Below are positions 1,366 through 58,866 of a DNA stretch of 64,000 nucleotides, piece after piece. Both the position numbers and the translations under genes were made by a program. The DNA is from Mobula hypostoma (Eukaryota), in NCBI RefSeq assembly GCF_963921235.1, contig NC_086108.1, positions 90,398,001 to 90,462,000 of the forward strand. The letters are read 5' to 3'. Numbering within the stretch: position 1 is the first letter of the stretch; every line of letters begins with the position of its first letter. The notes under the pieces were generated by a model that saw only the letters and a program-made list of their open reading frames with translations, did not search any database and was not told where the DNA came from.

Positions 1366-1865
1366 GGGATGTTTCCTCAAGACCTATTAGGTACATTCTC
1401 AGGAAAGGAGTTGGACCTTTAGGACTGAAATGAGAAGAATACTCTGTATGCAGCAGATTATTGTTTTTTTTGGGAAAGTGTGCATGCTCATTTGTTGGGA
1501 AAATTCAAGGCTTACAATTTTTTTTTCCCCTTAAGTCTTGGAAATAGATCCATTTGGTCATTTAGTCCATGCAACAATTCCATGCCCCATATTTCCTATA
1601 ACCTTTCTCACATGCCCTTTAATGCTCCCCACAATCCTCCTACCACCGAACAGTAACAGGGATAACTTAGGTTAGTGAATCAGCCGAACATGCAGTATAA
1701 GACATAATAGCAGCAATAAGCGATCCAGCCCATTGAGTCTGCACCACCATTCAATCGTGGCTGATCTATACACGAGGAATTCTGCAGATGCTGGAAATTC
1801 AAGCAACACACATCAAAGTTGCTGGTGAACGCAGCAGGCCAGGCAGCATCTCTAGGAAGAGGTAC

Positions 1866-1901
1866 AGTCGACGTTTCGGGCTGAGACTCTTCGTCAGGAC
1901 T
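1866..1901 (-). ncRNA. Minimal type I hammerhead ribozyme motif (helix II weakened)
   Basis: Minus strand reads AGTC-CTGACGA-AGAGTCTCAGCCC-GAAA-CGTC-GACT. Confidence 0.6.
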
Positions 1902-2770
1902 AACTGAAGGAAGAGCTAGTAAGAGATTTGAAAGGGGGAGGGTGAGATCCAAAATGATAGAAGACAGGAGGGGGAGGGATGAAGCCAAGAGCTGGACAGG
2001 TGATTGGCAAAAGGGATATGAGAGGATCATGGGACAGGAGGCCCAGGGAGAAGGAAGAGGGGGAGTGGGGGGAAAAGCCCAGAGGATGGGCAAGGGGTAT
2101 AGTCAGAGGGACAGAGGGAGAAAAAGGAGAGAGAGAGAGAAAGAATGTGTATATAAAAATAAATAACGGATGGGGTACGAGGGGGAGGTGGGGCATTAGC
2201 GGAAGTTCGAGAAGTCAATGTTCATGCCATCAGGTTGGAGGCTACCCAGACGGAATATAAGACCTGTGCTCTGTCCGCCAGAGAAAGCAGGATCTCCCAG
2301 TGGCCACACATTTTAATTCCACATCCCATTCCCTTCCTGATATGTCTATCCACGGTCTCCTCTACTATAAAGATGAAGCCACAGTCAGGTTGGAGGAACA
2401 ACACCTTATATTCCGCCTGGGTAGCCTCCAACCTGATGGCATGAACATTGACTTCTCTAACTTCCGCTAATGCCCCACCCCCCTCTTGTTCCCCATCCGT
2501 TATTTTTTTATATACACACATTCTTTCTCTCACTCTCCTTTTTCTCCTTCTGTCCCTCTCACTATACCCCTTGATCATCCTCTGGGTTTTTCCCCCCCTC
2601 CCCCTTTTCCTTCTCCCTGGGCCTCCTCTCCCATGATCCTCTCATATCCCTTTTGCCAATCACCTGTCCAGCTCTTAGCTCCATCCCTCCCCCTCCTGTC
2701 TTCTCCTATCATTTTGGATCACCCCCTCACCCTCCCACTTCCAAATCTCTTACTAGCTCTTCCTTCAGTT

Positions 2771-2806
2771 AGTCCTGACGAAGGGTCTCGGCCCGAAATG
2801 TAGACT
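2771..2806 (+). ncRNA. Minimal type I hammerhead ribozyme motif (variant)
   Basis: AGTC-CTGACGA-AGGGTCTCGGCCC-GAAA-TGTA-GACT. Helix I is AGTC/GACT; helix III is altered. Confidence 0.6.
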
Positions 2807-3139
2807 GTACCCCTTCCTAGAGATGCTGCCTGGCCTGCTGCGTTCACCAGCAACTTTGTGTGTGGCTAATCTATTATCTTTTTTGTTCTGGCAAGTCAGA
2901 ATAATCAGCACCCAAGTGGTCAGCTGAAACAAATCCCAGGGTGAATTTTACTGATCATTGTCCCAATCAGGGATTAAATTGTTCATGGTTAAACTATTTA
3001 AATAGTTGTACTGGCGAGTGTGAGTTTGTATTGAGTTTTGAGGTTGGTGTATTTTTACTGAATATAAAGTTATTCTGAATTCCAGTTTATTCTATTGTCT
3101 GGCTTTGGGTCTTATCAATAGTTATAGGTGAGAGAACAC

Positions 3140-7270: not shown

Positions 7271-10200
7271 TCAGAACCCTCCATACCCCCCGATCCCTTT
7301 AGCCACAAGGGCCATATCTAACTCCCTCTTAAATATAGCCAATGAACTGGCCTCAACTGTTTCCTGTGGCAGAGAATTCCACAGATTCACCACTCTCTGT
7401 GTGAAGAAGTTTTTCCTAATCTCGGTCCTAAAAGGCTTCCCCTTTATCCTCAAACTGTGACCCCTCGTTCTGAGACTTCCCCAACATCGGGAACAATCTT
7501 CCTGCATCTAGCCTGTCCAATCCCTTTAGGATTTTATATGTTTCAATCGGATCCCCCCTCAATCTTCTAAATTCCAACAAGTATAAGCCTAGTTCATCCA
7601 GTCTTTCATCATATGAAAGTCCTGCCATCCCAGAAATCAATCTGGTGAACCTTCTTTGTACTCCCTCTAAGGCAAGGATTTCTTTCCTCAGATTAGGGGA
7701 CCAAAACTGCACACAATAATCCAGGTGTGGTCTCACCAAGGCCTTGTACAACTGCAGTAGTACCTCCCTGCTCCTGTACTCGAATCCTCTTGCTATAAAT
7801 GCCAGCATACCATTCGCCTTTTTCACTGCCTGCTGTACCTGCATGCCCACTTTCAATGACTGGTGTATAATGACACCCAGGTCTCGTTGCACCTCCCCTT
7901 TTCCTAATCGGCCACCATTCAGATAATAATCTGTTTTCCGGTTTTTGCCACCAAAGTGGATAACTTCACATTTATCCACATTAAATTGCATCTGCCATGA
8001 ATTTGCCCACTCACCTAACCTATCCAAGTCACCCTGAATCCTCTTAGCATCCTCCTCACAGCTAACACTGCCGCCCAGCTTCGTGTCATCCACAAACTTG
8101 GAGATGCTGCATTTAATTCCCTCATCCAAGTCATTAATATATATTGTAAACAACTGGGGTCCCATCACTGAGCCTTGTGGTGCCCCACTAGTCACTGCCT
8201 GCCATTCTGAAAAGGTCCCATTTATTCCCACTCTTTGCTTCCTGTCTGCCAACCAATTCTCTATCCACATCAATACCTTACCCCCAATACTGTGTGCTTT
8301 AAGTTTGCACACTAATCTCCTGTGTGGGACCTTGTCAAAAGCCTTTTGAAACTCTAAATATACCACATCCACTGGTTCTCCCCTATCCACTCTACTAGTT
8401 ACATCCTCAAAAAATTCTATGAGATTCGTCAGGCATGATTTTCCTTTCACAAATCCATGCTGACTTTGTCCGATGATTTCACCGCTTTCCAAATGTGCTG
8501 TTATCACATCTTTGATAACTGACTCTAGCAGTTTCCCCACCACCGATGTTAGGCTAACCGGTCTATAATTCCCTGGTTTCTCTCTCCCTCCTTTTTTAAA
8601 AAGTGAGGTTATGTTAGCCACCCTCCAATCCTCAGGAACTAGTCCAGAATCTAAAGAGTTTTGAAAAATTATCACTAATGCATCCACTATTTCTTGGGCT
8701 ACTTCCTTAAGCACTCTGGGATGCAGAACATCTGGCCCTGGGGATTTATCTGCCTTTAATCCCTTCAATTTACCTAACACCACTTCCCTACTAATATGTA
8801 TTTCCCTCAGTTCCTCCATCTCACTGGACCCTCTGTCCCCTACTATTTCTGGAAGATTATTTATGTCCTCCTTAGTGAAGACAGAACCAAAGTAATTATT
8901 CAATTGGTCTGCCATGTCCTTGCTCCCCATAATCAATTCACCTGTTTCTGTCTGTAGGGGACCTACATTTGTCTTAACCAATCTTTTTCTTTTCACATAT
9001 CTATAAAAGCTTTTATAGTCAGTTTTTATGTTCCCTGCCAGTTTTCTCTCATAATCTGTTTTCCCCTTCCTAATTAAGCCCTTTGTCCTCTTCTGCTGAA
9101 CTCTGAATTTCTCCCAGCGCTCAGGTGAGCCACTTTTTCTGGCTAATTTGTATGCTTCTTCTTTGGAATTGATACTATCCCTAATTTCCCATGTCAGCCT
9201 CGGGTGCACTACCTTTCTTGATTTATTCTTTTGCCAAGCTGGGATGAACAATTGTTGCAGTTCATTCATGCGATCTTTAAATGCTTGCCATTGCATATCC
9301 ACCGTCAACCCTTTAAGTGTCATTTGCCAGTCTATCTTAGCTAATTCACGTCTCATACCTTCAAAGTTCCCCTTCTTTAAGTTCAGAACCTTTGTTTCTG
9401 AATTAACTATGTCACTCTCCGTCTTAATGAAGAATTCCACCATATTATGGTCACTCTTACCCAAGGGGCCTCTCACGACAAGATTGCTAATTAACCCTTC
9501 CTCATTGCTCAATACCCAGTCTAGAATAGCCTGCTCTCTGGTTGGTTCCTCGACATGTTGGTTCAAAAAACCATCCCGCATACATTCCAAAAAATCCTCT
9601 TCCTCAGCACCCTTACCAATTTAGTTCATCCAATCTACATGTAGATTGAAGTCACCCATTATAACTGCTGTTCCTTTATTGCACACATTTCTAATTTCCT
9701 GTTTAATACCATCCCCAACCTCACTACTAATGTTAGGTGGCCTGTACACAACTCCCACCAGCGTTTTCTGCCCCTTAGTGTTATGCAGCTCTACCCATAT
9801 CGATTCCACATCCTCCCGGCTTATGTCCTTCTTTTCTATTGCGTTAATCTCCTCTCTAACCAGCAACGCCACCCCACCTCCTTTTCTTTCATGTCTATCC
9901 CTCCTGAATATTGAATATCCCTGAATGTTGAGCTCCCATCCTTGGTCACCCTGGAGCCATGTCTCTGTGATCCCAACTATATCATATTTATTAATAACAA
10001 TCTGCACTTTTAATTCATCCACCTTGTTAGGAATGCTCCTTGCATTGACACACAAAGCCTTCAGGCGCACTTTTACAACTCTCTTAGCCCTTATACAATT
10101 ATGTTGAAAAGTGGCCCTTTTTGATGCTTGCCCTGGATTTGTCGGCCTGCCACTTTTACTTTTCACCTTACTACTTTTTGCTTCTACCCTCATTTTACAC

Positions 10201-10289
10201 CCCTCTGTCTCTCTGCACTGGTTCCCATCCCCTTGTTGTGAATTAACCTCCTCTCGCCTAGCCTCTTTAATTTGATTCCCACCCCCCAA
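7271..10289 (-). pseudogene. CR1 ORF2: APE endonuclease plus reverse transcriptase
   Basis: EN motifs NARSI, GITETWL, GGGVAL, YRPP, MGDFN. RT motifs PGPD, NYRPVSL, QHGF, FQKAFDKV, PQGSVMGP, FVDD. One in-frame stop (9621-9623) and a frameshift near 7470. Confidence 0.95.
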
Positions 10290-10294
10290 CCATT

Positions 10295-11117
10295 CTAGTT
10301 TAAAGTCACCTCAGTAGCCCTCGCTGATCTCCCTGCCAGGATATTAGTCCCCCTAGGATTCAAGTGTAACCCGTCCTTTCTGTACAGGTCACGCCTGCGC
10401 CAAAAGAGGTCCCAATGATCCAAAAACTTGAATCCCTGCCCCCTGCTCCAATCCCTCAGCCACGCATTTATCCTCCACCTCATTGCATTCCTACTCTCAC
10501 TGTTGCATGGCACAGGCAGTAATCCCGAGATTACTACCTTTGCGGTCCTTTTTCTCAACTCCCTTCCTAGCTCCCTATATTCTCCTTTCAGGACCTCTTC
10601 CCTTTTCCTTCCTATGTCATTGGTACCTATAGGTACCACGACCTCTGGCTCCTCACCCTCCCACTTCAGGATATCTTGGACACGATCAGGAATATCCCGG
10701 ACCCTGGCACCAGGGAGGCAAACTACCATCCGGGTCTCTGGACTGCGTCCACAGAATCACCTATCTGACCCCCTTACTATCGAGTCCCCTATTACAACTG
10801 CCCTCCTCTTCCTTGCCCTACCCTTCTGAGCTACAGGGCCGGACTCTGTGCCGGAGGCACGGCCACTGTCGCTTCCCCCAGGTAAGCTGTCCCCCCCAAC
10901 AGTACTCAAACAGGAGTACCTATTGTCAAGGGGCACAGCCACCGGGGTACTCTCTATTACCTGACTCTTACTCTTCTCCTTCCCCCTCCTAACCGTGATC
11001 CACTGGTCTGCCTCCCGTGGCCCCGGTGTGACCACCTGCCTGTAACTCCACTCTATCAACTCCTCACTCTCCCTGACCAGACGAAGGTCATCGAGCTGCA
11101 GCTCCAGTTCCCTTACG
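10295..11117 (-). pseudogene. CR1 ORF1 with SGNH/GDSL esterase domain
   Basis: Motifs VIGDSIVRG, LPGA, IGTND, DGLHLN. One in-frame TGA at 10757-10759 splits the two ORF-track pieces. Confidence 0.9.
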
Positions 11118-11224
11118 ACATATTAGGACAAATTTATTAACAACTATTAAAATGTATTCCAGAATATATTTTATTGACTCCCAAGCCCTCAGGTACAAGG
11201 ATCATATTAAATGATTGACTCAAC

Positions 11225-22399: not shown

Positions 22400-23745
22400 G
22401 TAAGATTTAAGTGGAGTGTCAGTTGTATGAGTGGGCCAGTGTTAGAATGAAATGCTCAAGCTTTTGCTCAGAGAGGTGGAGAACTGTTTTTCATTTTATT
22501 TATCTTTCTTTCATATTGCACACTTCGAGCAATGGGGATGCCAGGCACGGTACCTGGATGCTCTTTTTGCAGGATGTGCAAAGACAGGAAGACCTCCAGT
22601 GTCCCTGATGACTACACCTGCAAGAAGTGCATCCAGCTGCAGCTTCTAACAGACCATGTAAAGGAACTGGAGCTGGAGCTGGAGCTGAAGCTAAATGAAC
22701 TCCAGATCATTTAGGAGGCTGAGGAGTTGAATGACAGGCAACACAGGGAGATAATTACACCCAGAGTGCAGGGCGCAGGTAACTGGGAACTGTCAGGAAG
22801 GAGAAAGGGGCAAGGCAGCCAATGGAGAGTACCCCTGCAGTTATTCCCCTCAATTACAGGTATAATTGACCTGTAATTGAGGTGAACGGCCACAGGGATA
22901 CTCTCTGACTTGAGGCCTGTGACTAGTTAGATTAGATTAGATTAGATTAGATTCAACTGTATTGTCATTGTGCTGAGTACAGATACAAAGCCAATGAAAT
23001 GCATTTAGCATCTGACCAGAAATGCAAAGCATAGTATTATTTACAAAATAACTGCAAATGAAAAAGTGCTACAGCACACAAATATAAAAGTACTGAGACA
23101 GTACGATATAGGTGCAATACTGCTTAGCGCTGCGATGAGAGGTTCAGCAGTGTCACAACCTCGGAAGAAGCTCTTCCTGTGCCTGCTGGTGCGGGAGCGG
23201 AGGCTCCTGTAGCACCTACTGGTGTGGGCCTAGTGGTGCGCTTGTAAAGAGAGCTTTTGACACATTCTCCTTCATAACTTAAGTATTGAGTATAGCGGTT
23301 GGAATGTTATGTTGAAGTTTTATAATGGATGCAGTCCTAGGCATCTACCTCAGGGAAGGAGATCAATAAGATTGAAAGAGTGCAGAGAAGATTTACAAGG
23401 ATGTTGCCAGGACTTGAGGGCTTGAGTTATAGGGAAAAGTTTTAAATGTTTGGATATTGTTTCCCAGAGCATAGGTGAATGAAGGGAGATTTGAACTGTT
23501 TAAAGGGCAGCATGGGGGGGGGGGCAGTGTGGGGTTAGTGTCTTCACTCCCAGTGTGGTGAGACTGTGAAATGAGCTGCTAGCAGATAATTCAGTTTCGA
23601 TTTCAACATTTAAGAAGAATTTGGATGAGTGCTTATATAGGTGTGGTTTGGAGTTGCTGGTCAACAGGATGAGGCAGATTTATAGTTCAGCATGGACTAG
23701 ATAGTCTGAAGGGCCTGTTTCTGTGCTGTAGTATTCTATCTCTAT
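22400..23745 (+). mobile_element. Heavily deleted CR1 (ORF1 N-terminus joined to RT/3' end)
   Basis: PDDYTCKKCIQLQLLTDHVKELELEL (CR1 ORF1 Cys/coiled-coil region), then RT 3' remnants at 23225-23745. Interrupted at 22926-23225. Confidence 0.7.
22926..23225 (-). mobile_element. Rex1-like 3' end with (TCTAA)n tail
   Basis: Minus translation YRSLRSRTSRHRKSFF. ATTAG pentamer repeats at ~22929-22952. Confidence 0.7.
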
Positions 23746-32154: not shown

Positions 32155-32950
32155 ATAGTAGTCATAGTCATACTTTATTGATCCTGGGGGAAATTGGTTT
32201 TCATTACAGTTGCACCATAAATAATAGTAATAAAACCATAAATAGTTAAATAGTAATATGTAAGTTATGCCAGGAAATAAGTCCAGGACCAGCCTATTGG
32301 CTCAGGGTGTCTGACCCTCCAAGGGAGGAGTTGTACAGTTTGATGGCCACAGGCAGGAATGACTTCCTGTGATGCTCTGTGTTGCATCTTGGTGGAATGA
32401 GTCTCTGGCTTCATGTACTCCTGTGCCCACCCAGTACATTATGTAGTGGATGGGAGACATTGTTCAAGATGGCATGCAACTTGGACAGCATCCTCTTTTC
32501 AGACACCACCGTGAGAGAGTCCAGTTCCATCCCCACAACATCACTGGCCTTATGAATGAGTTTGTTGATTCTGTTGGTGTCTGCTACCCTCAGCCTGCTG
32601 CCCCAGCACACAACAGCAAACATGATAGCACTGGCCACCACAGACTCGTAGAACATCCTCAGCATCGTCTGGCAGATGTTAAAGGACCTCAGTCTCCTCA
32701 GGGAATGGAGACGGCTCTGACCCTTCTTGTAGACAGCCTCAGTGTTCTTTGACCAGTCCAGTTTATTGTCAACTCGTATCCCTAAGTATTTGTAATCCTC
32801 CACCATGTTCACACTGACCCCCTGGATGGAAACAGGGGTCACCATTACCTTAGCTCTCCTCAGGTCTACCACCGGATCCTTAGTCTTTTTCACATTAAGC
32901 TGCAGATAATTCTGCTCACAACATGTGACAAAGTTTCCTACCGTAGCCCT
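32155..32950 (-). mobile_element. Rex1/Babar-like LINE 3' fragment
   Basis: ORF 32411-32893: VEDYKYLGIRVDNKLDWSKNT, KKGQSRLHSLRRLRSF, FYESVVAS, VVCWG. AATAAA and (GACTAT)n tail. Confidence 0.9.
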
Positions 32951-33574: not shown

Positions 33575-35485
33575 AAGGAGTTGGCCAAAGTAAATTGCAA
33601 AGGCTGGAGTTGCTGGGAAAAATGAGGAAGGTGCAGGATAGATGTATTCCTAAAACGAAGAAAGGCTCAAATGGCAAAATAGTACAACTGTGGCTGACAA
33701 AGGAAGTCAAAGCTAATGTAAAAGCAAAAGGGAGGGCGTACAACAAAACAAAAATTAGCGGGAAGATAGAGACTTGGGTAGCTTTTATAAAACTGCAGAA
33801 AGCAACTAAAAGAATCATTAGGAGGGAAAAGCTGAAATATGAAACCAAGCTAGCAAACAATATCAAGGTGGATAGAAAAAGCTTTTTCAAGTATATAACA
33901 AAATAAGTGAGATGAGAGTGGATAATAGACAGCTAGAAAATGAGGCTGGAAAAATAATAACGGGGGACAAGGAGATGGCAGATGAAATAAAAGAATTTTG
34001 CATCTGTCTTCATTGTAGAAGACACTAGCAGTGTGCTATATATTGAAGGGTGTGAGGGAAGAGAAGTGGGTGCAGGTACTATTACAAGGGAGAAAGTGCT
34101 CAAAAAGCTGAAAGACCTAAAGGTGTATAAGTCACCCAGACCAGATAAACTACTCCCTAGGGTTTTGAAAGAGGTAGCGGTAGAGATTGTGGAGGCATTA
34201 GTAATGATCTTTCAAGTATCATTGGAACTTGGCATGCTTCTGACGGCTGGAGAATTGCAAATGTCATTCCACTCTTTAAGAAAGGAGGGAGGCAGCAGGA
34301 AGGATGTTATAGATCAATTAGCCTGACCTCAGTGGTTGGAAAGATGTTGGAGTCAATTGTTGAGAATGGAGATTATGGAGTACTTGGTGACACAGGGCAA
34401 AATAGTACAAAGTCAGCATCATTTCCTTAAGGGAAAATCGTGCCTGATGAACCTGTTGGAGTTCTTTGAGGAGATTAGAAGTAGGATAGATAAAAGTAAT
34501 GCAGTGGATTTTATATATTTGGATTTTCAGAAGGCTTTTGACAAGCTGCCATGCATGAAGCTGCTTACCAAGTTAAGAGCCATGGTATTACAGGAAAGTT
34601 ACTAGCATGGTTAGACCATTGGCTGATTGGTAGAAGGCAGCAAGAGGGAATAAAAAGATTCTTTTCTGGTTGGCTGCCAGTGACTAATGGTGTTCCACAG
34701 GGGTCGGTGTTGGGACTGCTTTTTATGCTGTATATCAATGAATTAGATGATGGAACAGATGGCTTTGTTGCCAAGTTTGCAGATGATATGAATACTGGTG
34801 GTAGGGCAGGTAATGTTGAGGAAATAGGAAGGCTACAGAAGGACTTGGATTAGGAGAAGGGGCAAAAAAATGGCAACTGAAATTCAATGTCGGAAAATGC
34901 ATAGTCGTGCACTTTGGTAGAAGAAGTAACTGTGCAAATATTTTCTAAATAAGAAGAAAATCCAAAAATCCAAGATGCAAAGGGACTTGAAAGTCGTTGT
35001 GCAGAACATCCTAAAGGTTAAGTTACAGGTAGAGTTAATGGTGAGGTAGGCAAATACAATGTTAGCATTCATTTCAAGAGGTTTAGAATATAAGAGCAGT
35101 GATGTGATGCTGAGGCTTTATGAAGCATTGGTGAGGCCTCACCTTGAGTATTGTGAACAGTTTTGGCTCCGTATCTGTGAAAAGATTTACCAGCCTTGGA
35201 GCGCGTTCAGAAGAGGTTCACAGGGATAATTCCAGAAATGGAAGGGTTATCATATGAGGAACGTTTGATAGCTCTGTGTCTGTATTCACTGGAATTCAGA
35301 AGGATGTTGGGGGTTGGGGGTGGGAGTGGAATCTCATTGAAACCTTTTGAATGTTGAAAGGCCTAGACAGAGTAGATGTGGAAGTGATCTTATGATTCCC
35401 ATGGCGGAGAAGTCTAGGACAAGAAAGCACAGCCTCAGGAAAGAGGGCATCCATTTAAAACAGAAATGTGGAGAAATTTCTTTGA
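33575..35485 (+). mobile_element. CR1-type LINE ORF2 fragment
   Basis: Motifs KSPRPD, YLDFQKAFDKL, GVPQGSVLG, FADD, with many frameshifts. Confidence 0.9.
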
Positions 35486-38258
35486 TGCAAAATTCTTTTG
35501 ATTTGTGTCACTGTTACTTTCTTTTATCAGTTCTCATCATGTTGTTTCCTCTGTTCTTTCATCATTCCACCAATATGAACAAATTCTCTTTGTCTACTAC
35601 AACTAAACTCTTCATGATTTTAAATACCCCATTTGGAATCCCTCGCGAGCCTTATATTCACAGGTGAGTAACCCCAGACTCCTTGATCTGTCCGTGTAAC
35701 TTCTTTCGGGCCATCAACTAAAGACTAATTTTGTGGCACTCTTGCACAGGTAAGGTAACAGCTGCCTCTAAGCTGCACCATACCTGGTTTAATCTTGTAC
35801 TGCACATGATACAACACCTATGTCTGAGGCACTGTTTTATAAAGGTTCAAGAAATCAATGCACTTGTGCTTGTTGCCCTTGAATACAATGCCCCATATAC
35901 AAAGTCCATGATCCTGCAATATGGGCTTGCTTAACTGCTTCCTTTATCTCCAACAAAAAGTACAAATAAAACTTGTATTTAAGACCAGGTCCATGAGATA
36001 CAGGAGCAGAATTAGGCCATTTGGCCAGTCAGATCTTCTCTACCATTTTATCATGGCTGATCTGTTTTCCCTCTGAGCCCCAATCTCCTGCCTTCTCACC
36101 ATATCTGTTCATGCCCTGACCAACGAAAAACCTATCAACCTCTGCCTTAAGTATATCCAATAGCTTGGCCTCTACAGCCACCTTTGGCAACAAATGCTAT
36201 GAATTTGTCACTTTGGCTAAATAAATTCCTCCTCATCTCTGTTCCAAAAGGACGACCCTGTATTCTGAAACCATCCTTTGGTCTTAGGCTCCTTCACCAT
36301 AGGAAGCATCCTCTCTACATCCACTCTATTGCACCTTTTCAACACTCAGTATGGTTTTAATATGATTATCCGTCATTCTTCTGAATTCCAGTGAGTAGAG
36401 GCCCAGAATAATCAAATGCTCTTCATCTAGGACAAGTCTTTCAATTCTGGAATCATTTTCATGAACCTCCTTTGAACTCTCTCCAGTGTCAGCACATCCT
36501 TTCTTAGATAAGGAGCCAAAAACAGCTCACAATAATCGAAGTGAGGCCTCACCAGTGCTTTAAAAAGCCTCAAAATTATATCCTTGCTTTTAAATTTTAG
36601 TCCTCTTGAAATGAATGCTAACTTTAATTTGCCAAACTCATCACTGACTCAGTCTGCAGTCCTGGAAATCCTGCCCAAGGACTTCCAAGTTGCTTTGGAC
36701 CTTAGATTTTTGAATTTCCTCTTCATTTAGAAAATAGTCTAGCCTTTTATTTCTTCTTCCAAATTGCATGACCATACACTTCCCAACACTATTTCACGTG
36801 TCATGTCCTTGTCCATTCTGTTAATATGTCTAAGTTCTTCTGTAGCCACCCTATTCCTCAAAACTGCATGCCCCTCCATCTACCTTCTTATCACCTGCAA
36901 ACTGGGCCACAAAGTCGTCAATTACATCATTCAGTTCATTGACATGTAACATAAAAGGTAGTACCATCACAGACTCCAGTGGAACACCACTAGTCACCAG
37001 CAGCCAACCAGAAAAGGCTCTCTTTATTCCCACTCTTTTCTTTTTTCCAATCAGTCAATGCTCTCTCCGCTCATATCTTTCCTGTAATACCGTTAACTTG
37101 TTAAACCGGGTCATGTGGAACTTTGTCAAAGGCCTTATGAACATTCAAATGCACAACATCCATTGATTCTCCTTTATCTATCCTGCTTGTTATTTCTTCA
37201 AAGAAGTCCAACAGATTCCTCAGGCAAGGTTTTCCCTTAAGAGAACCATGCTGACTATGGCCTATTTTATCCTGTGCCTCCAAGTAACCTTTACAACCAC
37301 TGAGAGTCAGATTAACTGCTCTATAATTTCCTTTCTTCTGTCTCTCTCCTTTATGAAGAACAGAGTGACGTGCAGTCTTCCAGTCCTCTGGAACCATGCC
37401 GGAATCTATTGATGCTTGAAAGCTCATTACTAATGCCTCCACAATCCCTTCAGCCATCTCTTTCAGAACACACGAGTGTACACTGTCTGTTCCAGGTGAT
37501 TTATCTACCTTCCAATCTTTCAGTTTCTCAAGAACCTTCTTCCTAGTCATGACAATTTCACACACTCCTGCCCTCCTCAAACTTCCAGCATACTGCTAGT
37601 GTCTTCTACAGTGAAGACAGATGGAAAATACTTATTCAGTTCATTCACCATTTCCTTGTTGCCCATTACTACCTCTCCAGCATCATTTTCCAGTGGCCCA
37701 ATATCTACTCTCGCCTCTTTTTTTACACTTTAGATATTGGAAGAAACTTTTGATATACTCTTTAATATTATTGGCTAGCTTAGCTACATCTTTTTACTCT
37801 TTATGAAATTTTTCGTTGCCTTCTGTTGGTTTTTAAAAGCTTCCCAAATCTCTATCTTCCCACTAATTTTATGTCCTGTCTTTGGCTTTTATGTTGGCTT
37901 TGACTTCTCTTCTCAGCCACAGTTTTGTCATCTTGCCTTTAGAATACTACTTCCACTTTGGGATGTATATATCATCTGCCTTCCGAGTTGCTCCCAGAAA
38001 CTCTAGCCATTGCTGCTCTGCCATCATTCCTATCACTTTTTATTCAATCAGTTTGACCAACTTGTCTCTCATGCCTCTGTAATTCCCTTCACTCCACTGT
38101 AATACTGATACATCTGACTACTTCTTCCTAAGTTTCCGGGTTAATTTGATCATATTATGATTACAACCTCAAATGGTTTCTTTACCTTCAGCTGTCAAAT
38201 CAATAATGGTTCACTGCACAAAACCCAAACAGAATAAAGAATAGCTGATCCCCTAGAG

Positions 38259-39884: not shown

Positions 39885-40400
39885 TAAACACGAGTTTCTG
39901 CAAATATTGGAATTCTTGAGCAACACACACGAAATGCTGGAGGAACTCAGTAGGCCAGGCAGCATCTATGGAGAGGATTTAAAAGTCAATGTTTTGGCCA
40001 GATCCGTCTGATGAAGGTGTCTGCCCAAAACATTGAGTGTTTATTCCCCAATGTAGATGTTGCCTGACCTGTTGAGTTCCTTCCATATTTTATGTGTGTT
40101 GTCTGATTGATAACTTACCAAGTTCTGATGGACAGTCTCTGCTCAAAATGTCGACTGTTTATTCTTCTCCATAGATGCTGTCTGATTTATTGAGTTCCTC
40201 CAACATCTTGTATGTGTTTCATGGGGAACTGCACTGCACTTCAAATTATTCCAAGAAACAACACTTCAGTGCTTCCACAAACGAGAAAATCTGCAGATGT
40301 TGGAAATCCAAGCAACACACACAAAATGCTGGAGGAACTCATCAGTCCAGGCAGCATCTATGGAAAAGAGTACAGTTGAAGTTTCGAACCGAGACCCTTC
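39885..40400. mobile_element. Cluster of Penelope-like terminal repeats (minus, plus, plus, minus)
   Basis: Inverted pair ~39921-40001 / 40020-40101, a second plus copy 40121-40218 and a minus copy 40277-40400. Hammerhead boxes are decayed. Confidence 0.75.
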
Positions 40401-40851
40401 AGGCGGACTTTAGTGCTTCTCCCATTTTGCCAGTTCTCTGTCCATACTCAAATGGTGCTTTTTATAATCTACTTTGCATGTCTAGTCTTTTTAACACTAC
40501 ATTATTGGATATCTTTTGACAGTACGACACATCAATTGAATTTACCTTATCAAAAAAATCTTTACTGATTTATTTAAACACGGTTTGCTGTAACCAAGTT
40601 CATACCAGCCATTTCTGTTTAATTCTGCCGTTGATTACCCTTGATAAAACTAAAGAGAAATAGTCATTTATTGCCTTTGTCACAGCTTCTGCCTTCATGA
40701 GAAGCTATCCTTTTTGGTCTCTGATCAATTCGTGTCTCCTGCAGACATGATCAAAAGGTTCAGTTGTTGTTCAGACCAAATATCAGAATGGGGAAGAAAT
40801 GTGATCTATGTGATTTTGGCTGTGGATCTTGATGCCAAACAGTGTGTCTCA

Positions 40852-47420: not shown

Positions 47421-47463
47421 TGGTAATCACTGTGAGTTTTGCATGAAGATTTAGCTAAGGAGA

Positions 47464-47802
47464 CTGTCCTTCCAGGTGAGGCGACACTTCACCTATGAGT
47501 CGACTGGGGTGATATACTTCGTCCAGTGCTCCCGATGTGGCCTTCTATATACTGGCGAGACCTGACGCAGACTGGGAGACCGCTTTGCTGAACATCTACG
47601 CGCTGTCCGCCAGAGAAAGCAGGATCTCCCAGTGGCCACACATTTTAATTCCACATCCCATTCCCATTCTGACATGTCTATCTGCGGCCTCCTCTACTGT
47701 AAAGATGAAGCCACACTCAGGTTGGAGGAACAACACCTTATATTCCGTCTGGGTAGCCTCCAACCTGATGGCGTGAACATTGACTTCTCTAACTTCCGCT
47801 AA
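47464..47802 (+). pseudogene. GIY-YIG endonuclease domain of a Penelope-like element
   Basis: My translation: GVIYFVQCSRCGLLYTGET*RRLGDRFAEHL..VATHFNS..H..RLEEQHLIFRLGSLQPDGVN, with one TGA (probably from CGA). Confidence 0.9.
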
Positions 47803-48096
47803 TGCCCCACCTCCCCCTCGTACCCCATCTGTTATTTATTTTTATACACACATTCTTTCTCTCACTCTCCTTTTTCCCCCTCTGTCCCTCTGACTATACC
47901 CCTTGCCCATCCTCTGGGTTCCCCCCCCCACTTGTCTTTCTTCCCGGACCTCCTGTCCCATGATCCTCTCATATCTCCTTTGCCAATCACCTGTCCAGCT
48001 CTTGGCTCCATCCCTCCCCCTCCTGTCTTCTCCTATCATTTTGTATCTCCCCCTCCCCCTCCCACTTTCAAATCTCTTACTAACTCTTCCTTCAGT

Positions 48097-48133
48097 TAGC
48101 CTGACGAAGGTTCTCGGCCTGAAACGTCGACTG
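48097..48133 (+). ncRNA. Minimal type I hammerhead ribozyme motif
   Basis: CTGACGA (48101-48107), AGGT/GCCT helix II, GAAACGTC (48121-48128). Helix I lacks one base relative to the other copies. Confidence 0.7.
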
Positions 48134-48605
48134 TACCTCTTCCTAGAGATGCTGCCTGGCCTGCTGTGTTCACCAGCAACTTTGATGTGTGTTGCTTGAA
48201 TTTCCAGCATCTGCAGTATTCCTGTTGTTTGATGCCTATATATAGTTTCTTAATGCACAGATATTGAAGATATAATAGATAGTGAATAGGAATGTCTAAC
48301 TCTTATAACTGGATATATATCAGTTAGAGAGTTGATTGGAGCAATGGCAGATGTAATTTAAGTGTGAGATAATGTATTTTGGAAAGATGAATAAGATTTG
48401 GACATACACACAATCGTAGAGCCCTAGGAAGTGGAGATGAACAGAGAGACCTGGAGGTACGTGTCCATAGGAAATGGGGTGGGGAGGTGTATGACATACC
48501 TTTCTTTATTGGACAGGGCACAGTGCTGAGGGAATATCGCCCATCTTTTTTCTCACCACATTCTAAGAGGGAAATGATTGTGCTGAGGAGATCCAGCAGG
48601 ATTTT

Positions 48606-51100
48606 CTTTCTTTCTTTTTAAATCTTTTTATTGAATAAGTATACAAAAGGTAAGCCATATAGGTACTAATACACTGTTAGAATATAATAAAATTACAGGA
48701 GATAATAAAACAGAAAAGAAATGATACAAACAATGTAACTTAAACATAAAATAATAAGGTAACATAATAGTATACTAATTTTTTATATATATATATATAT
48801 ATCAATAGAAAAAGGAAAAAAAAAACCCACCGTGCAACTAAACTAAAAGCAAAGCAAAGAAATGGGCTAACTTGGAAACAAGTAGAGTTAAAAGACTTAA
48901 AATCACATCCTCAAACCCGACCTCCATTAAAAACAGTTGGAAAAAAACAAGAAGGGAATATAAATATGGAGCAAAAACGGGAAGAAAGAAAATTACAATA
49001 AATGAAAATATTGAATAAAAGATCTCCAGGTCTGTTCAAATTTAAGTGAGGAATCATAAAGATTGCTTCTAATTTTCTCCAAATTCAAGCATAATATCGT
49101 CTGAGAAAACCAAAAAAAGGTAGATAGAGCATTAAGCTCTTTCCAATGTTGTAAGATACATCTTTTCGCCATTAAAGTAAGAAATGCAATCATTCTACGG
49201 GCTGAAGGAGAAAGATTACTGGAAATTTTAGGTAATCCAAAGATAGCAGTAATAGGGTGAGGAGAGATATCTATATTCAATACCTTTGAGATAATATTAA
49301 AAATGTCTCTCCAAAAAGTTTCCAGAGTAGGACAAGACCAAAACATATGAGTTAAAGAGGCTATCTGCCCCGGACATCTATCACAAAAAGGATTAATATG
49401 AGAATAAAAATGAGCTAATTTATCTTTGGACATATGTGCTCTATGAACAACTTTAAATTGAATTAGGGAATGTTTAGCACAGATAGAGGAAGTATTGACT
49501 AATTGTAAAATCTGCCCCCAGTCATCCACGGAAATGATAGAGCCCAATTCCTGTTCCCAATCTACCCTAATCTTATCAAATGGAGCTTTCCTAAGTTTCA
49601 TAATAATATCATAAATCATAGCCGATGCACCTTTCTGACATGGATTAAGGTTAATTATAGTATCTAAGATATATGTAGGAGGAAGCATTGGAAAGGAAGA
49701 AAGTATAGTACTTAGGAAATTTCTAACTTGTAGATATCTAAAAAAAATGTATTCTTGATAAATTATATTTATTAGATAATTGTTCAAAAGACATAAGGGA
49801 ACCATCTAAAAATAAATCCAAAAACCGTGAAATACCCTTAGTCTTCCAAATTTGAAAAGCATGATCCGTGAAAGAGGGAGGAAAAAATATGTTACCTAAA
49901 ATAGCTAGCCCAAATTGGTTAAGATCAAAAAATTTTCTGAATTGGAACCAAACACGTAAGGTATATTTAACTATCGGGTTAGAGACCTGTTTGAGGCGTT
50001 TCAAATCAAAAGGAAGAGAGGAACCTAAAATAGAGCCTAGTGTATAGCCCTGAACAGATGGTAATTCCAATGCTACCCATTTAGGAATGGATAGTATATC
50101 CTGGTCAAGTAACCAAAATTTCATATGTCGAATATTAATTGCCCAATAATAGAAACTAAAGTTAGGTAATGCTAAACCTCCATCTCTCTTGGCTTTCTGT
50201 AAATGTATTTTACCCAGTCTCAGGTTTTTATTTTGCCAAATAAATGAAGAAATTTTTGAGTCAACTTTATCAAAAAAAGATTTTGGAACAAAAGTTGGTA
50301 ATGCCTGAAATATATATAAAAATTTTGGCAGAAAAAACATCTTAACTGCATTAATACGACTAATCAAAGTTAAATATAATGGAAACTATTTAGATGAAAG
50401 TTGAGTAATATGGTCAATTAAGGGTAAAAAATTAATCTTAAATAAATCTTTGTGTTTACAAGTAATTTTAATCCCAAGATAGGAAAAATAATTATTAATC
50501 AATTTAAACAAAAAGTTGTGATATAAGGGAAGTTGTTTATTAATCGGAAAAAGTTCACTCTTACTAAGATTTAATTTATAACCTGAAAAAAGACTAAATT
50601 GTGCTAATATATCTAAAACAGCAGGGATGGATTTTTGAGGATTAGAAATATATAAAAGTAAATCATCAGCATAGAGTGATATTTTATGGGACTTTAATCC
50701 CCGAGTTATCCCAGTAATATTTGGAGATTCTCGAATGGCAATTGCAAGAGGTTCTAATGCAATATCAAATAATAGGGGACTAAGAGGACAGCCTTGTCGA
50801 GTACCTCGAAAAAGAGGAAAAAAAGGTGAGTTTAAAGAGTTAGTACGGACCGAGGCTACAGGGGAATGATATAACAGTTTAATCCAGGATATAAATTTCA
50901 AGCTAAAGTTAAACATTTCAAGCACCTTAAATAAATAAGGCCATTCTACTCTATCAAAAGCTTTCTCGGCGTCTAAAGAAATAACACACTCAGGAACATT
51001 TTGTGAGGGAGTATAAACGATATTTAACAATGTACGAATATTATAAAAAGAGGACTCTGATTGATATAAGGAAGAATAAAAATCAAAAAAGGTTTGATTA
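48606..51100 (-). mobile_element. L1-like LINE, 5'-truncated, with TSD
   Basis: Motifs LDAEKAFDRVEW, GTRQGCPLSPLLF, YADD, YLGI and the zinc knuckle CDRC..THMFWSC. AATAAA plus A-rich tail. 11-bp TSD AGCAGGATTTT (48595-48605, 51101-51111). Confidence 0.92.
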
Positions 51101-52200
51101 AGCAGGATTTTGCATGAATCAGAGGTCTTTAGATGTAATGAGAGATTGGATAGGCGGAACTTGTTTTTCTTCGAGCAAACGAGACTGAGGAATGAGGAAT
51201 GAGCTGATAGGGTGGTGAATCTGTGGAATTCGTTGCCACAGGTGGCTGTGAAGGACAAGTCATTGGGTATATTTAAGGAGTGGTCGATAGATTCCTGATT
51301 AGTTAAGGCATGAAGGGATACAGGGAAAAGGCTGGAAATTGGGGCTGAGAGGGAAAATGGATCACACATGATGAAATGACAGAGCAGACTCAATGAGCCA
51401 AATGGCCCACTTCTACTCCTATATCTAATGACCTGATAAAATTTTGAGAGATACAGGTAGCGTGGACAGTAAGAATGTTTTTCTCATGGTGAGTTTTTGT
51501 CTAAAGTAGCAGGATTAAGCGGAACAAGAGGAAGTTAGAAGGGGATTTTCTTTAATGAAAAATGGATGATCTCTGATATCTGGAAAGCTGCCTGATGGGA
51601 TGGTGGAGACAGATACACTCAGAGAATTTAAGTCACATCTAGACAGGTACTTGAATAACCAAGGCATAGAATGCTATGGATCTCATGTGAGCCATTGGGA
51701 ATTGTATAGATAAATGCAATGGTCCATTTTTGTGCTTTTTAATTCTATGAATAGTGGTTATATTGCATTTTCTCAAGGAGGCTTTCAGAAGATCCTGTAT
51801 CTTTTTCTGTTCACCTGGTAATCACTTCACATAAAGTTATTGCTTTCATAGCTGCTACCAACCTCCTGAAATGGACTTTGATGCTCTATTGTATTAGCTA
51901 CTGCAGTCAGTTAGCTGTTGACTACCCTCTTTAAGCTGTTCTTCTGGTCTAACAAACAATTTGTTATAGGATAAGAGAAAGTCTGTAGCTGCTGGAAATC
52001 CAAAGCAACAGACACAAAATGCTGGAGGAACTCAGCAGGTCAGGCAGCAACTATAGAAATGAGTAAGTAGTCGACGTCTTGGTTTGAGAACCTTCATCAA
52101 GACTGAGAAAGAAGGGAGAAAATGCCAGAATAAGAAGGTTGGAGGAAGGAAAGAAGGCTAACTGGAAGGTGATAGGTGAAGTAGGGTGGGTGGGAAAGGT

Positions 52201-52430
52201 AAACAACAGGAATTCTGCAGATGCTGGAGATTCAAGCAACACACATAAAAGTTGCTGGTGAACGCAGCAGGCCAGGCAGCATCTCTAGGAAGAGGTGCAG
52301 TCGACGTTTCAGGCCGAGACCCTTCGTCAGTTAGTCCTGACGAAGGGTCTCGGCCTGAAACGTCGACTGCACCTCTTCCTAGAGATGCTGCCTGGCCTGC
52401 TGCGTTCACCAGCAACTTTTATGTGTGTTG
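52201..52430. mobile_element. Young palindromic Penelope-like insertion (94-bp perfect arms)
   Basis: 52237-52330 is the exact reverse complement of 52337-52430, with spacer TTAGTC. TSD GGTGGGAAAGGT (52189-52200, 52431-52442). Confidence 0.95.
52333..52368 (+). ncRNA. Intact minimal type I hammerhead ribozyme motif
   Basis: AGTC | CTGACGA | AGG-GTCTCGG-CCT | GAAA | CGTC | GACT. Predicted cleavage after GUC at 52364. Confidence 0.8.
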
Positions 52431-55400
52431 GGTGGGAAAGGTTAAGGGATGGAGAAAAAGGAATCTGATAGGAGAGGAAAATGGACATAGGAGAAAGGGA
52501 AGGAAGGGGGTACTAAGGGGAAAGTGATGGGCATCGTGGTACGAGTGGAGGCCATGGATCGATATATGGGAATCAGAATTAAAATGTCTGGCCATTGGGA
52601 AACTCTGCTTTTGGCAGATGGAGTAGTGGTGCTTGATGAAGCAGTCCCACAAGTTACGACGGTTACACCAATGTAAAGGAGGCTGCATTAGAAGCACTGG
52701 ACGCAATAGCCGACCCTAGCAGATTTGCAGATGAAGTATTGTATCACTTTTGAGGTCATCTACAAGTCCTAGCTGGCTATTTAGAAACATACCCAAGTCA
52801 TCGGCTATGTTTGAGACAGAGGTTGACAGATTCTTGATTAGTCGGGCCATGAAGGGATATGGGGCAAAGGTGGGAGATTGTGGCTAAGAAGAAAAATAGG
52901 TTAGCCATGATGAAATGGCAGAGCACACTCGATGGGTCAAATCTGCCTAGTTCTGCTCCCGAGTCTTCTTCTGAGGGGGCTCTACGTAAAGAATCAAGCC
53001 CATGTCCAGTCTTGATGTGTGGTACAGTTGGAAAGTCAGATGACTACCAGCATGCACAAATGCAATTCACTGCTCATTTCAGAATCATTAATTCTGCCCT
53101 GATTTTCATATTACCAGTGTAAATTCCCTTATCTGCATTTATAAAGGAATTGCTCATGTAAATGCTGTAATTATAGCTTCTAACAGCACTTCCACAAGAG
53201 AGGGCACAATTATGGTGTGACATGTTTACATTGGCAGTGTCCATTTTAAATCTGGACATGGCTTTGTCTTGTTAAAAGAAAGATAGGAAATGCTTTTTGA
53301 TGTGAAATTTCATAAAATAATTGCTGAGGAGGTGGAGTTGCAGGAAACGTTAGTATGATCGTATAATTAATAGGAGTTCACCACTGAATTGGGTAAAACT
53401 TAAGATTGAAATGTAATTGTAAGTTGAAGGTATAGGCAGACAGAAATGCCATTAATAGAACTCCTAATGAATGTTAGGATACCAGAAGTGTGCTTATTAA
53501 TTAATTATTGCTGTTCCTACAGCTTCTTAACACATAAAACTGTGATCTGAAAGAAGGCCCAAAATGTTATTCCACTTGATGTTAAAAAGCTGAGCTATGA
53601 AACTCCTGGTACAGTTTGAATGATGTGCTGTATTTCAGAATACAATGTAAATAGCTTCTTTTAAATTAATTTTAAGTCAGTTTTGCAAAAAAAAAACATT
53701 TTGGTGATTTAAAAAAAGAATCCAACTAGGGAATGCATTGAAGGTTTTGAGCCTCTGGCTACTGTAATCCTTTGAAACAGCAGCAGCAATTAAATCATTG
53801 GAACTATTGCTATTTCTTTATGAGAAAATAGTGTTATTTTTCATCTGTGTTCCTCTGAAGAGCTATCAAACATATGCATTTAATTGCATTGATATGGAAA
53901 AGAATTATAGTTTTCAAACAATTTTGTTTGTAAAATTCCTGAGAAAAATAATAATATATTCAACATCATTTTTTATTAAAAATACAGTTAAAATTCATGA
54001 AGAATCCAAAGGGTAACAGTTCTGTTCGTCTTAAGCAGACCAAGTAGCCACATACAGATGTAAATTCAAAGCACAACAAAATTGAAGACGCCGTCCTTTA
54101 TAGAACATCCAATTCATTATAGCCATGGTGCAGAGTGAATGTGATTATTGTGGATTGTGTGTAAATCATTTACTTATCAATGATGTAATAGATAAAATTT
54201 AATTGAGAGCTTTGATATATCAGATTAATTCCACAAATAATAAAGTAATGAGTTGGAAAGGTATTCATGAGTGGAGCAAATCCTATGTCTTATGGTTCTT
54301 CATTGTTGGGTGTATATAATGCATGACTAATGAATAAAACATTTGTTATATTCATTAGTTATGCATTTTTATGTAGCTTTAATGAGGACTATTAAAAATG
54401 TGGAGGGCTCATTTATACTCATTAGGTTTCGTGAGCTGCACTCAGTTTCATAGGAATATTCAGTCTGGGATCCCTCTAGCCAGTCTACATCATTTCAGTC
54501 AGTCTGCAAGTTCAAAGAAATAAAATATAACTTTTCCTCTTTATTATGTTCATGATTATACCTTTGGTTATGAAAAGTAGCCTACGTGCTTCCAAACTTT
54601 ACTGACTTTGTGAACCTCTTACTGCTCCATTTCTACTATGAACTTTTTACCATCTTGAAAACCAATTCAGTCAATGAAACTATTGGCGTTCCTTCTTAAT
54701 AATGAAATAAATGGGATGAATTGTTTAGCTGATGGGTATAAGGTTGCATATTGCTATACAACTGCTTCCGCTGACTTTTTGACTCAGTCCTGAATAGATG
54801 AATTTGAGACTCTAACCCCTGCTTCTAGATGTCCCATCAAAGGATAACTCTTTGCTGCATATGCTGTCTCAAACCAAGAATATTGTATGCTTCAATGAGA
54901 TCACCACTCATTTTCTAATGCAAAAGAGTAAAGGCCCAATTAACCTTTCTAATTTTAATATGGTGACGAACTAGATTTGTGTGATGCTTAAAGACATTCA
55001 TTGGACCTCATGACACTATTTAAATATATCCACTGTGTACAAAGGTAATTTTAATATAGGGTTGTACTTCTACATTTACAGTTTAGCAGCTCAGAGCACC
55101 CATATACATTCCTAAATTGACAGGGGGCAATAGAATTTTTTTCAAGCTATAATGAGACATGTTGTTGTAAAAAAAAACACAACCGGGAGTCCTCACTTTA
55201 AATACCTAATGATTTCATTTTATGGCCTACTCTGGGATGTACATCAAGATCATTGCAAATAGATAAATTATTTCATTCAGATTGAGTTTCCATGTAAGGA
55301 GAGCTCTAGAAAACTGGGCATTTTCCATTAGCACAATGAAGGTAATAAGGAATCTGATGTGAGGATTTCAAAATATTTTAGTTTCTGTAAGGTATATAGC

Positions 55401-57243: not shown

Positions 57244-58866
57244 CAGGTGTTCCCCGCTTTTCGAATGTTCGTTTTACGAAACCTCACTGTTATGAAAGAC
57301 CTACATTATTTTCCTGTTTTCGCTAACAGAAGGTGTTTTCACTGTTATGAAAAAAGGGCAGTGTGCGGAAATAGCAGCGCGCGATAAAAAAAATCAGCGC
57401 GCGATTAAAAAAAAGCAACACGCGCTGAGCAGCTGCTCTCCCTGGATTCGGAACTGCATTCTCGCCGGCATTGCTTAAACACGTGCCTGTGAGTAGCTGT
57501 TTGCAAGATGGGTTCTAAGGTATCGGAAAAGCCTGAAAGAGCTCGTAAGGGTGTTACACTTAGCGTAAAACTAGACATAATTAAGCATTTCGATCGTGGT
57601 GAACGAAGTAAGGACAGCGTGAGTTTGACCGTGGAAGTTGACGAAGATGATGTTGAAGAGGTTTTGGCATCTCGTGACCAAGGACTGATAGACGAAGAGC
57701 TGATGTAATTGGAAGAGGAAAGGATAACAATCGAAACTGAATGAGTAATGATAAAGTACAACTCTAATTTTGAAAGGGTACGTCGGTTTAGGGCATACTT
57801 GCAAGATGGTTTGAGTCCTTACAAAGAACTGTATGATAGAAAAATGCGCGAGGCTCAGCAGTCAAGCATACAGTACTGTCGTTTTTCAAGCCTTCCACAT
57901 CAGCCACAGTAGACGACGAACCTCGACCTTCGACATCAAGGCAGGCAGTTATAGGAGAAGATGAGCTGCCTGCCCTAATGGAAACAGACGACGATGAGCT
58001 GACACCCCAGTGTCTCACCACCTCAACCCCCAGGCCGCGGACAGATACCGATCCGCGAAGAATGTAGTGGTAGCCAGGAGGCACACAGCACATCTTTAAG
58101 AAAAAAGCAGAAATAAACATGCTAATTAGTTAGGTGCAACCTGGCACGTAATTGTTGGCCCAGATCAAAGGCGATGCAATCAGCAATCGCCTCTGATCTG
58201 GGCCAACACCTAATTAATTAGCTTGCTTATTTCAGCTTTTTTCTTAAAGATGTGCTGTGTGCCTTCCGGCCACCTCTGTACCCCTGCATACTTCGCGGGT
58301 CAGTATCAGTTCGCTGCCTGGAGGGTGGGGCCACTGCACCACCCCAACCTGCGATGACTCAGCCTAACACACCACCATCAGTGTGCTCGGCGCTGTCTTC
58401 CCAATTCCGATAAGTGATAATACACTGTACATACATTATTTCTACTTTATATCGGCTGTGTATTTTTATGTGTTATTTGGTATGATTTGACAGCTTCATA
58501 GCTTAAAAGTTACTGGAGAGAGTGTTTTTGCCGTGTTTTTGCTGACAGCACTTGCGTCGTGTTTCTGCCGAGAGCACTTGCATGAGATTTTCGCTACGGG
58601 GAACAGTTCAGGCAATGATTGTGGAAAAGTATTTCTACTTTATATAGGCTGTGTATTTATCATATCATTCCTACTTTTACTATATGTTACTGTTATTTTA
58701 GGTTTTATGTGTTATTTTGCATGATTTGGTAGGTTTTTTTTGGTTCTGCGAACGCTCACAAAACTTTCCCACATAAATAAGTGGTAATTGCTTCCTTGCT
58801 TTACGACATTCCGGCTTACGGACCGTTTCATAGGAACGCTGTACCTTCGGATGGCGGGGAAACCTG
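57244..58866 (+). mobile_element. pogo/Tigger-like internally deleted DNA transposon
   Basis: TIRs CAGGTGTTCCCCGC / GCGGGGAAACCTG with TA on the left and TG on the right. HTH start MGSKVSEKPERARKGVTLSVKLDIIKHFDRGERSKD is fused to an acidic C-terminal segment; the DDE domain is missing. Confidence 0.85.

Follow-up and report, generated by a model that had tools for sequence, protein, structure and literature searches.

How can a retroelement leave two perfectly complementary copies of its own 3' end, head to head, at a single target site? The question is raised by a palindrome in a 64,000-nucleotide stretch of the genome of the ray Mobula hypostoma (contig NC_086108.1, positions 90,398,001 to 90,462,000; this whole stretch is called the window, and positions below are counted within it). 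We are close to certain that this palindrome consists of 3' ends of a Penelope-like element (PLE) that were inserted head to head, i.e. a PLE inverted insertion. As to how it arose, the reading that we favour, on somewhat better than even terms, is that both nicked target strands primed reverse transcription and that the resulting complementary DNAs (cDNAs) were joined at the short inverted motif TCAG/CTGA.

Build and identity of the insertion

The two arms of the palindrome are 94 nt each, 100% complementary, and separated by the spacer TTAGTC; around them runs a direct repeat that is exact over 14 bp (Table 1). The original prediction had described palindrome, spacer and duplication correctly, although its 12 bp for the duplication leave out the 2 bases at the end of the right arm, which belong to the target as well. 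It had overlooked that the insertion is asymmetric: on the left, 36 additional bases of the element separate the duplication from the arm. In the native element, TCAG-TTAGTC-CTGA stands at 2765-2778, as had been claimed for the junction beside the hammerhead motif, and 224 contigs of one sequencing run (X1) depart from the stretch at 52327 into native upstream sequence. Because of these two observations, the right arm and the loop are read in native sense from 52327, and the loop therefore belongs to the right, tail-less arm. When the insert was removed in silico, the two flanks aligned without a break as a single older member of the same superfamily of repeats, which confirms the proposed nesting; this host copy, which continues collinearly through the insertion site, has about 74-75% identity both with the young family and with another old copy at 20 kb. 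The target site is G-rich.

Table 1. Features of the palindrome locus and related copies in the window
Feature	Positions	Strand	Remarks
Older host copy of the young family's superfamily, 3' part	51966..52200	-	
Left target-site duplication	52187..52200	+	14 bp exact; 12 bp outside the element arm
PLE 'tail', left arm only	52201..52236	-	36 bp; native tail 48195-48230 matched at 34/36 positions
Left arm: element 3' end, sense on - strand	52237..52330	-	100% complementary to right arm; lacks 5' strand of hammerhead stem I
Native TCAG-TTAGTC-CTGA hairpin	52327..52340	+	TCAG/CTGA is the 4-nt junction microhomology; native copy; native upstream loose ends at 52327
Spacer TTAGTC, 6 nt	52331..52336	+	Native sense, runs on into right arm
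Minimal type I hammerhead motif (predicted)	52333..52368	+	Stem I AGUC/GACU, core CUGACGA, unpaired A, stem II, GAAA, palindromic ACGU; predicted cut after 52364
Right arm: tail-less 3' end of element	52337..52430	+	Stops at proximal 3' end site
Right target-site duplication	52429..52442	+	First 2 bases common with element end
Older host copy, 5' part	52443..52611	-	Up to the end of the endonuclease region
Reference copy of young family	47458..48230	+	GIY-YIG frame with one stop (47458-47799), 3' region, hammerhead, tail
Second inverted unit, young family	1757..2874		Tail on left arm; 143-nt spacer continuous with tail-less right arm
Third, old inverted unit	39885..40101		Tail on left arm; tail-less right arm extends further 5'

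The arms match a longer copy at 47470-48230 over its 3' end with 95% identity, and it is this reference copy, outside the palindrome itself, that holds the GIY-YIG endonuclease frame. Read with its one stop as X, the frame reaches 23.6 bits with Pfam GIY-YIG against a cut-off of 22.6, and by eye it shows the CCHH motif, with CSRC between the GIY- and YIG-like motifs and two later histidines. In a protein search with this frame 19 of 248 longer candidates passed, and the best five relatives (74-87% identical, the closest named ones 87% and 82%) were ray proteins, from Mobula hypostoma and Hypanus sabinus. A YIDD-type reverse transcriptase motif, a Cys-rich linker and the endonuclease could all be recognized by eye in these ray relatives. 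The proteins that are 80-87% identical over the endonuclease show their reverse transcriptase motifs by eye without a Pfam RVT_1 match (P0001, P0003), RVT_1 being found in the more distant P0014 only (51% identical; E 2e-6, just below the cut-off). A CX2-5CxxC linker, assigned to the Neptune and Nematis clades in PMC8557442, lies by eye between reverse transcriptase and endonuclease in P0001-P0003; the copy in the window begins just downstream of it, and no family copy seen in the 64-kb window reaches the reverse transcriptase region. Judged from its sequence, the inserted element is young and 5'-truncated, of Neptune/Nematis-type domain layout, with a putatively ribozyme-bearing end.

Several traits expected of an endonuclease-bearing (EN+) PLE are found together here: GIY-YIG, a hammerhead motif, a one-sided tail and an adjacent inverted 5'-truncated copy within one target duplication, of which the window holds a second case at 1757-2874. 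The family appears to be very abundant, the summed contig depth over the arms running into millions against about 14 in the unique flank in X1, although such a sum is not a measure of copy number. Family pattern scans gave 0 loci in the viral, genome and metagenome contigs searched.

Two other identities for the hairpin were considered and rejected. A miniature inverted-repeat transposable element (MITE) or fold-back DNA transposon does not fit the 36 unpaired element bases at the left end, nor arms that are retroelement 3' ends. A microRNA precursor scored below requirement (mir-3926, 51 of 82 bits; mir-341, 42.5 of 90 bits), with the perfect stem alone behind the scores, and an Rfam scan of the window gave 0 matches at the gathering score.

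The hammerhead motif was read from the sequence against the description in PMC4209133. As in the minimal hammerheads of metazoan PLEs (Cervera and De la Pena 2014, PMC4209133), stem I is short, an unpaired base precedes stem II, and the stem III positions are palindromic with no helix III. That study describes motif pairs on opposite strands 100-700 bp apart, whereas the two cores of the palindrome are only about 6 nt apart, one copy is without stem I and the first stem II pair in this subfamily is G-U. The motif is complete in the + strand copy only, since the - strand copy is without the 5' strand of stem I. Stems I and II are present in the predicted fold, in which the lowest-energy structure pairs part of the core, and the Rfam hammerhead models gave no match at the gathering score or at E up to 10. 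If either strand of the palindrome were transcribed, the RNA hairpin is predicted at about -204 kcal/mol and would mask the hammerhead. Transcription, small RNAs, editing and cruciform extrusion, which the original prediction raised, are conjectural. We take the insert to be a by-product of transposition.

Proposed priming and joining of the two arms

The original prediction explained the palindrome by a single truncated cDNA that snapped back and primed its own second strand. The tail and the loop contradict this. Copy-back from the right cDNA would enter flank DNA rather than 36 tail bases, because the loop is in register with the tail-less arm; the bases observed at 52201-52236 match the predicted flank at 8/36 positions and the native tail at 34/36. 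Had the left cDNA snapped back, the + strand loop should be GACTAA, and TTAGTC is observed. Judged on the sequence, neither simple snap-back model yields the observed product; a second priming event or a tail-bearing template is needed.

Where the family ends its copies points in the same direction. Among 14 matches to one old copy in the window, one of which is the query itself, 6 end at query position 95-103 and 7 at 120-130, and none ends at 104-119; the 3' ends are thus bimodal, and the two palindrome arms end one at each preferred site. Because both snap-back models fail and the arms end at the two preferred 3' ends, two primings, one per nicked strand and start site, would be the simplest route. 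We propose that the GIY-YIG endonuclease of the element would nick both target strands 12-14 bp apart, and that the top-strand end would prime reverse transcription at the distal start site, giving the tail-bearing arm, while the bottom-strand end would prime at the proximal start site, giving the tail-less arm. Both cDNAs may then halt at the small hairpin just upstream of the hammerhead, where their 3' ends, TCAG and CTGA, could anneal, each being filled in on the other, and the whole palindrome would form in one event. The arms would be identical because both recently copied the same young subfamily sequence. A precedent is the Anolis Poseidon element PAc (Frangieh et al. 2024, PMC11167929), whose protein nicks and extends both target strands in vitro, as the two arms here require, and which uses two RNA start sites whose interval corresponds to the 30-40-bp tail; the two 3' end sites of the present family are likewise separated by the tail.

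What role did TCAG/CTGA play in the joining? At random inversion junctions of the element, microhomology of at least 4 bases occurs with a frequency of 0.013 (148,087 junction pairs), and of 0.009 when the pairs lie within 30 nt (14,701 pairs). The rarity of a 4-nt microhomology at random junctions, about 1%, is suggestive of a role in joining, for a single event. The motif is one of 11 perfect stems of at least 4 pairs with a 3-12 nt loop in 597 nt of element. Starts of copies gather nearby: three of six young-family pieces (591, 52327 and 52330) start within 10 nt of the hammerhead core, and the junction may thus lie where it does because of a 5'-end hotspot and not through selection for microhomology. 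Of the 15 contig joints listed, 8 enter the right arm at 52333-52342, with sides of 18-33 letters. These joints hint at a hotspot of 5' ends and may also reflect where older subfamilies begin to align. The window also holds, at 583-684, a tail-less copy of the young subfamily with 2 CpG differences from the arms. Its sequence opens at the hammerhead core; the 8 bases just before it are native GTCCTGAC in reverse complement and resemble a very small relic of a fold-back. An upstream target duplication was looked for at this copy and none was found.

A relative of the simple fold-back could keep the self-priming step. Here the tail-less cDNA would fold at TCAG/CTGA and copy itself, and the new sense strand would anneal to, or switch onto, a tail-bearing cDNA from the other strand. 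We consider this unlikely, though well worth weighing. It accounts for the 100% identity of the arms, the polarity of the loop agrees with a fold-back of the tail-less cDNA, and self-priming has been proposed in PMC3846280. The cDNA end can form a 4-bp hairpin of -1.4 kcal/mol, or -3.6 with the native 8-bp extension, but such stability is like that of shuffled sequences (z 0.07 and -0.68), and the hairpin is absent from the minimum-energy fold of the whole 104-nt cDNA. Moreover, the 1757-2874 unit, of the same polarity, has a spacer of 143 nt and shows no microhomology for a fold-back.

The inverted units of the window also bear on a second alternative, in which a symmetric hairpin intermediate comes first, by self-priming on antisense RNA or from a palindromic master locus, and the endonuclease trims the tail from one end at integration. 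Both of its ideas are published, self-priming on antisense RNA being proposed in PMC3846280 and an origin of the tail by endonuclease removal suggested in PMC8557442, and together they account for identical arms and for a loop at the native hairpin. The window, where each of three inverted units has a different junction, speaks against a master palindrome, and PMC11167929 links the tail to two reverse transcription start sites rather than to cleavage. To this alternative we give a low probability.

In the same comparison of junctions, the predicted clustering of inversion points at TCAG..CTGA does not show up within the window. The unit at 1757-2874, with a 13-bp duplication carrying 1 mismatch (12/13, read from the flanks) and arms that differ by 26 mismatches and 14 gap columns in 461 columns, has 0 nt of junction microhomology by eye, and the unit at 39885-40101 has about 2 nt and no clean duplication. 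A general microhomology rule is therefore weakened, two of the three inverted units having 0-2 nt and only one using TCAG..CTGA. Around the third unit, at 39885-40410, four old family ends lie in alternating orientation, a head-to-head unit followed by a tail-to-tail pair.

A further possibility is that a tail-bearing cDNA snapped back after all and that recombination between the arms afterwards inverted the 6-nt loop, or that the arms were homogenized by gene conversion. Perfect inverted repeats can, as is generally known, invert their spacer. This route needs a second event, together with a copy-back that stopped exactly where 6 of the 14 family ends lie. Instead of gene conversion, the intact CpGs and the perfect target duplication indicate youth. 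We regard both variants as improbable.

In all three inverted units of the window the extra 5' sequence lies on the tail-less arm, a polarity that we count in favour of two primings. It is conceivable, though we would sooner doubt it than rely on it, that the family follows a fixed rule by which one arm starts at the distal site, and so carries the tail, the other starts at the proximal site, and the tail-less cDNA reaches further 5'. If true, such a rule would be the trace, left in the genome, of a PLE dimer that primes on two strands in a set order and whose cDNAs tend to end at the hairpin just upstream of the hammerhead, and it would explain PLE inverted repeats without an antisense template.

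Several points weigh against priming from both strands. Judged by the product, two cDNAs annealed end to end look the same as a snap-back with a template switch. The in vitro data of PMC11167929 come from an element of the Penelope/Poseidon clade with a preference for AT-rich targets, whereas the present family has a Neptune/Nematis Cys-rich linker and its target is G-rich. The shared polarity of three units out of three has a one-sided p of 0.125, the third unit being old and read by eye. As for the reads, neither the centre nor either target junction is spanned by any of the 32 contig pieces listed, and the empty allele was not seen among the contigs listed for the four runs searched.

Age of the insertion and support from reads

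The arms show 0 differences at 94 positions, which gives a 95% bound of 3.1% on their divergence. All five CpGs in the 83-nt core are intact in both arms, while the nearest subfamily copy (591) has lost 2 of them through CpG transitions; the other young copies differ from the arms at 3-5 positions. The sequence points to a recent insertion, because identical arms with intact CpGs stand against the 26 mismatches and 14 gap columns of the unit at 1757-2874. A related organism (X6) carries the flanks with 18 differences in 715 bases, and the 3.1% bound does not date the insert relative to that split.

The check in public reads drew on contigs only, from 4 of 24 listed runs, and the repeat swamps the signal. 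Unique contigs of X1 match both flanks of the palindrome with 0 differences. A joint from 52194 to 52459 (X5, depth 337) was not counted as an empty allele, since its length, 264 against 242, and its depth point to paralogous host copies; X5 is a presumed RNA run, whose flank contigs are no guide to expression. An assembly or library chimera, or a fold-back read artefact, would agree with the lack of spanning pieces among the contigs listed. An artefact of this kind would mirror flank DNA; what is found is a direct target duplication with a one-sided tail, inside a host element that is collinear on both sides of the insert, and the window holds an older, diverged unit of the same build, at 1757-2874. 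We think a chimera very improbable.

Neighbouring repeats, known systems and significance

The window holds other repeats too. The palindrome is flanked by a 125-bp direct repeat pair (51279-51403 and 52818-52942, 78%), a separate common repeat. On the - strand at 7431-11122 there is a nearly intact long interspersed element (LINE), which we take to be CR1-like, with an SGNH/GDSL esterase frame, an apurinic/apyrimidinic (AP)-type endonuclease and a 730-aa reverse transcriptase frame with few breaks. A second open reading frame at 48996-51483 (- strand), presumably L1/Tx1-like, is split by stops over three frames and matches RVT_1 and zf-RVT. A 179-aa frame at 32414-32950 (- strand) matches Pfam ALKBH8_N (E 1e-10) and is probably the C-terminal part of a LINE open reading frame rather than a host gene. 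An inverted pair of LINE-like fragments, 71-81% complementary and about 1.1-1.4 kb apart, occupies 35058-36625. Nested inverted repeats with 45, 32 and 30-bp arms are found at 1178-1365, with no other copy in the window, and MITE-like hairpin elements, each single in the window, at 58066-58277 (71-bp arms, 89%) and 22825-22905 (37-bp arms, 81%).

In the twin priming of L1 elements, cDNA synthesis is primed from both strands of the target and microhomology serves to join the two products, so that an inversion results inside one target duplication. There the second priming takes place at an internal position and the two pieces cover different stretches, whereas in the insertion described here both cDNAs would start at the 3' end and copy the same stretch, which gives a palindrome. 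A literature search by title or by the start of the abstract returned no paper on such palindromes in rays or on twin priming for PLEs, a weak negative given that most subscription papers lay outside its coverage.

The closest published structures are the EN+ PLE insertions of Arkhipova et al. 2013 (PMC3846280) and Craig et al. 2021 (PMC8557442), which, like the present one, have head-to-head copies in one target duplication with a palindromic junction. According to PMC8557442, PLE insertions may have at their 5' end an inverted copy that is itself 5'-truncated, and a tail of 30-40 bp is often found on just one side; the one-sided tail measures 36 bp here and 31 bp, with a 9-bp duplication, in the rotifer Pen2a (PMC3846280, PMC8557442). 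The present case differs in that the copies are only about 100-130 bp long, in that the whole insert is a near-perfect hairpin without coding sequence, and in its ray-like host. The origin of tandem and inverted PLE structures is called undefined in PMC8557442, and an antisense template is invoked for inverted copies in PMC3846280.

The locus is thus an ordinary, stump-sized inverted PLE insertion whose build has already been published. As one of very many copies it is of little importance in itself; its value is that of a clean and young record of the transposition reaction, in which the split of tail and loop between the arms excludes the simplest snap-back. The polarity of tail and loop bears on how PLE inverted repeats form, and the ray genome has enough copies for the two-primer model to be tested by counting. 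Inverted PLE insertions also give rise routinely to perfect hairpins, which in the genomes of sharks and rays may be taken in error for microRNA genes or MITEs.

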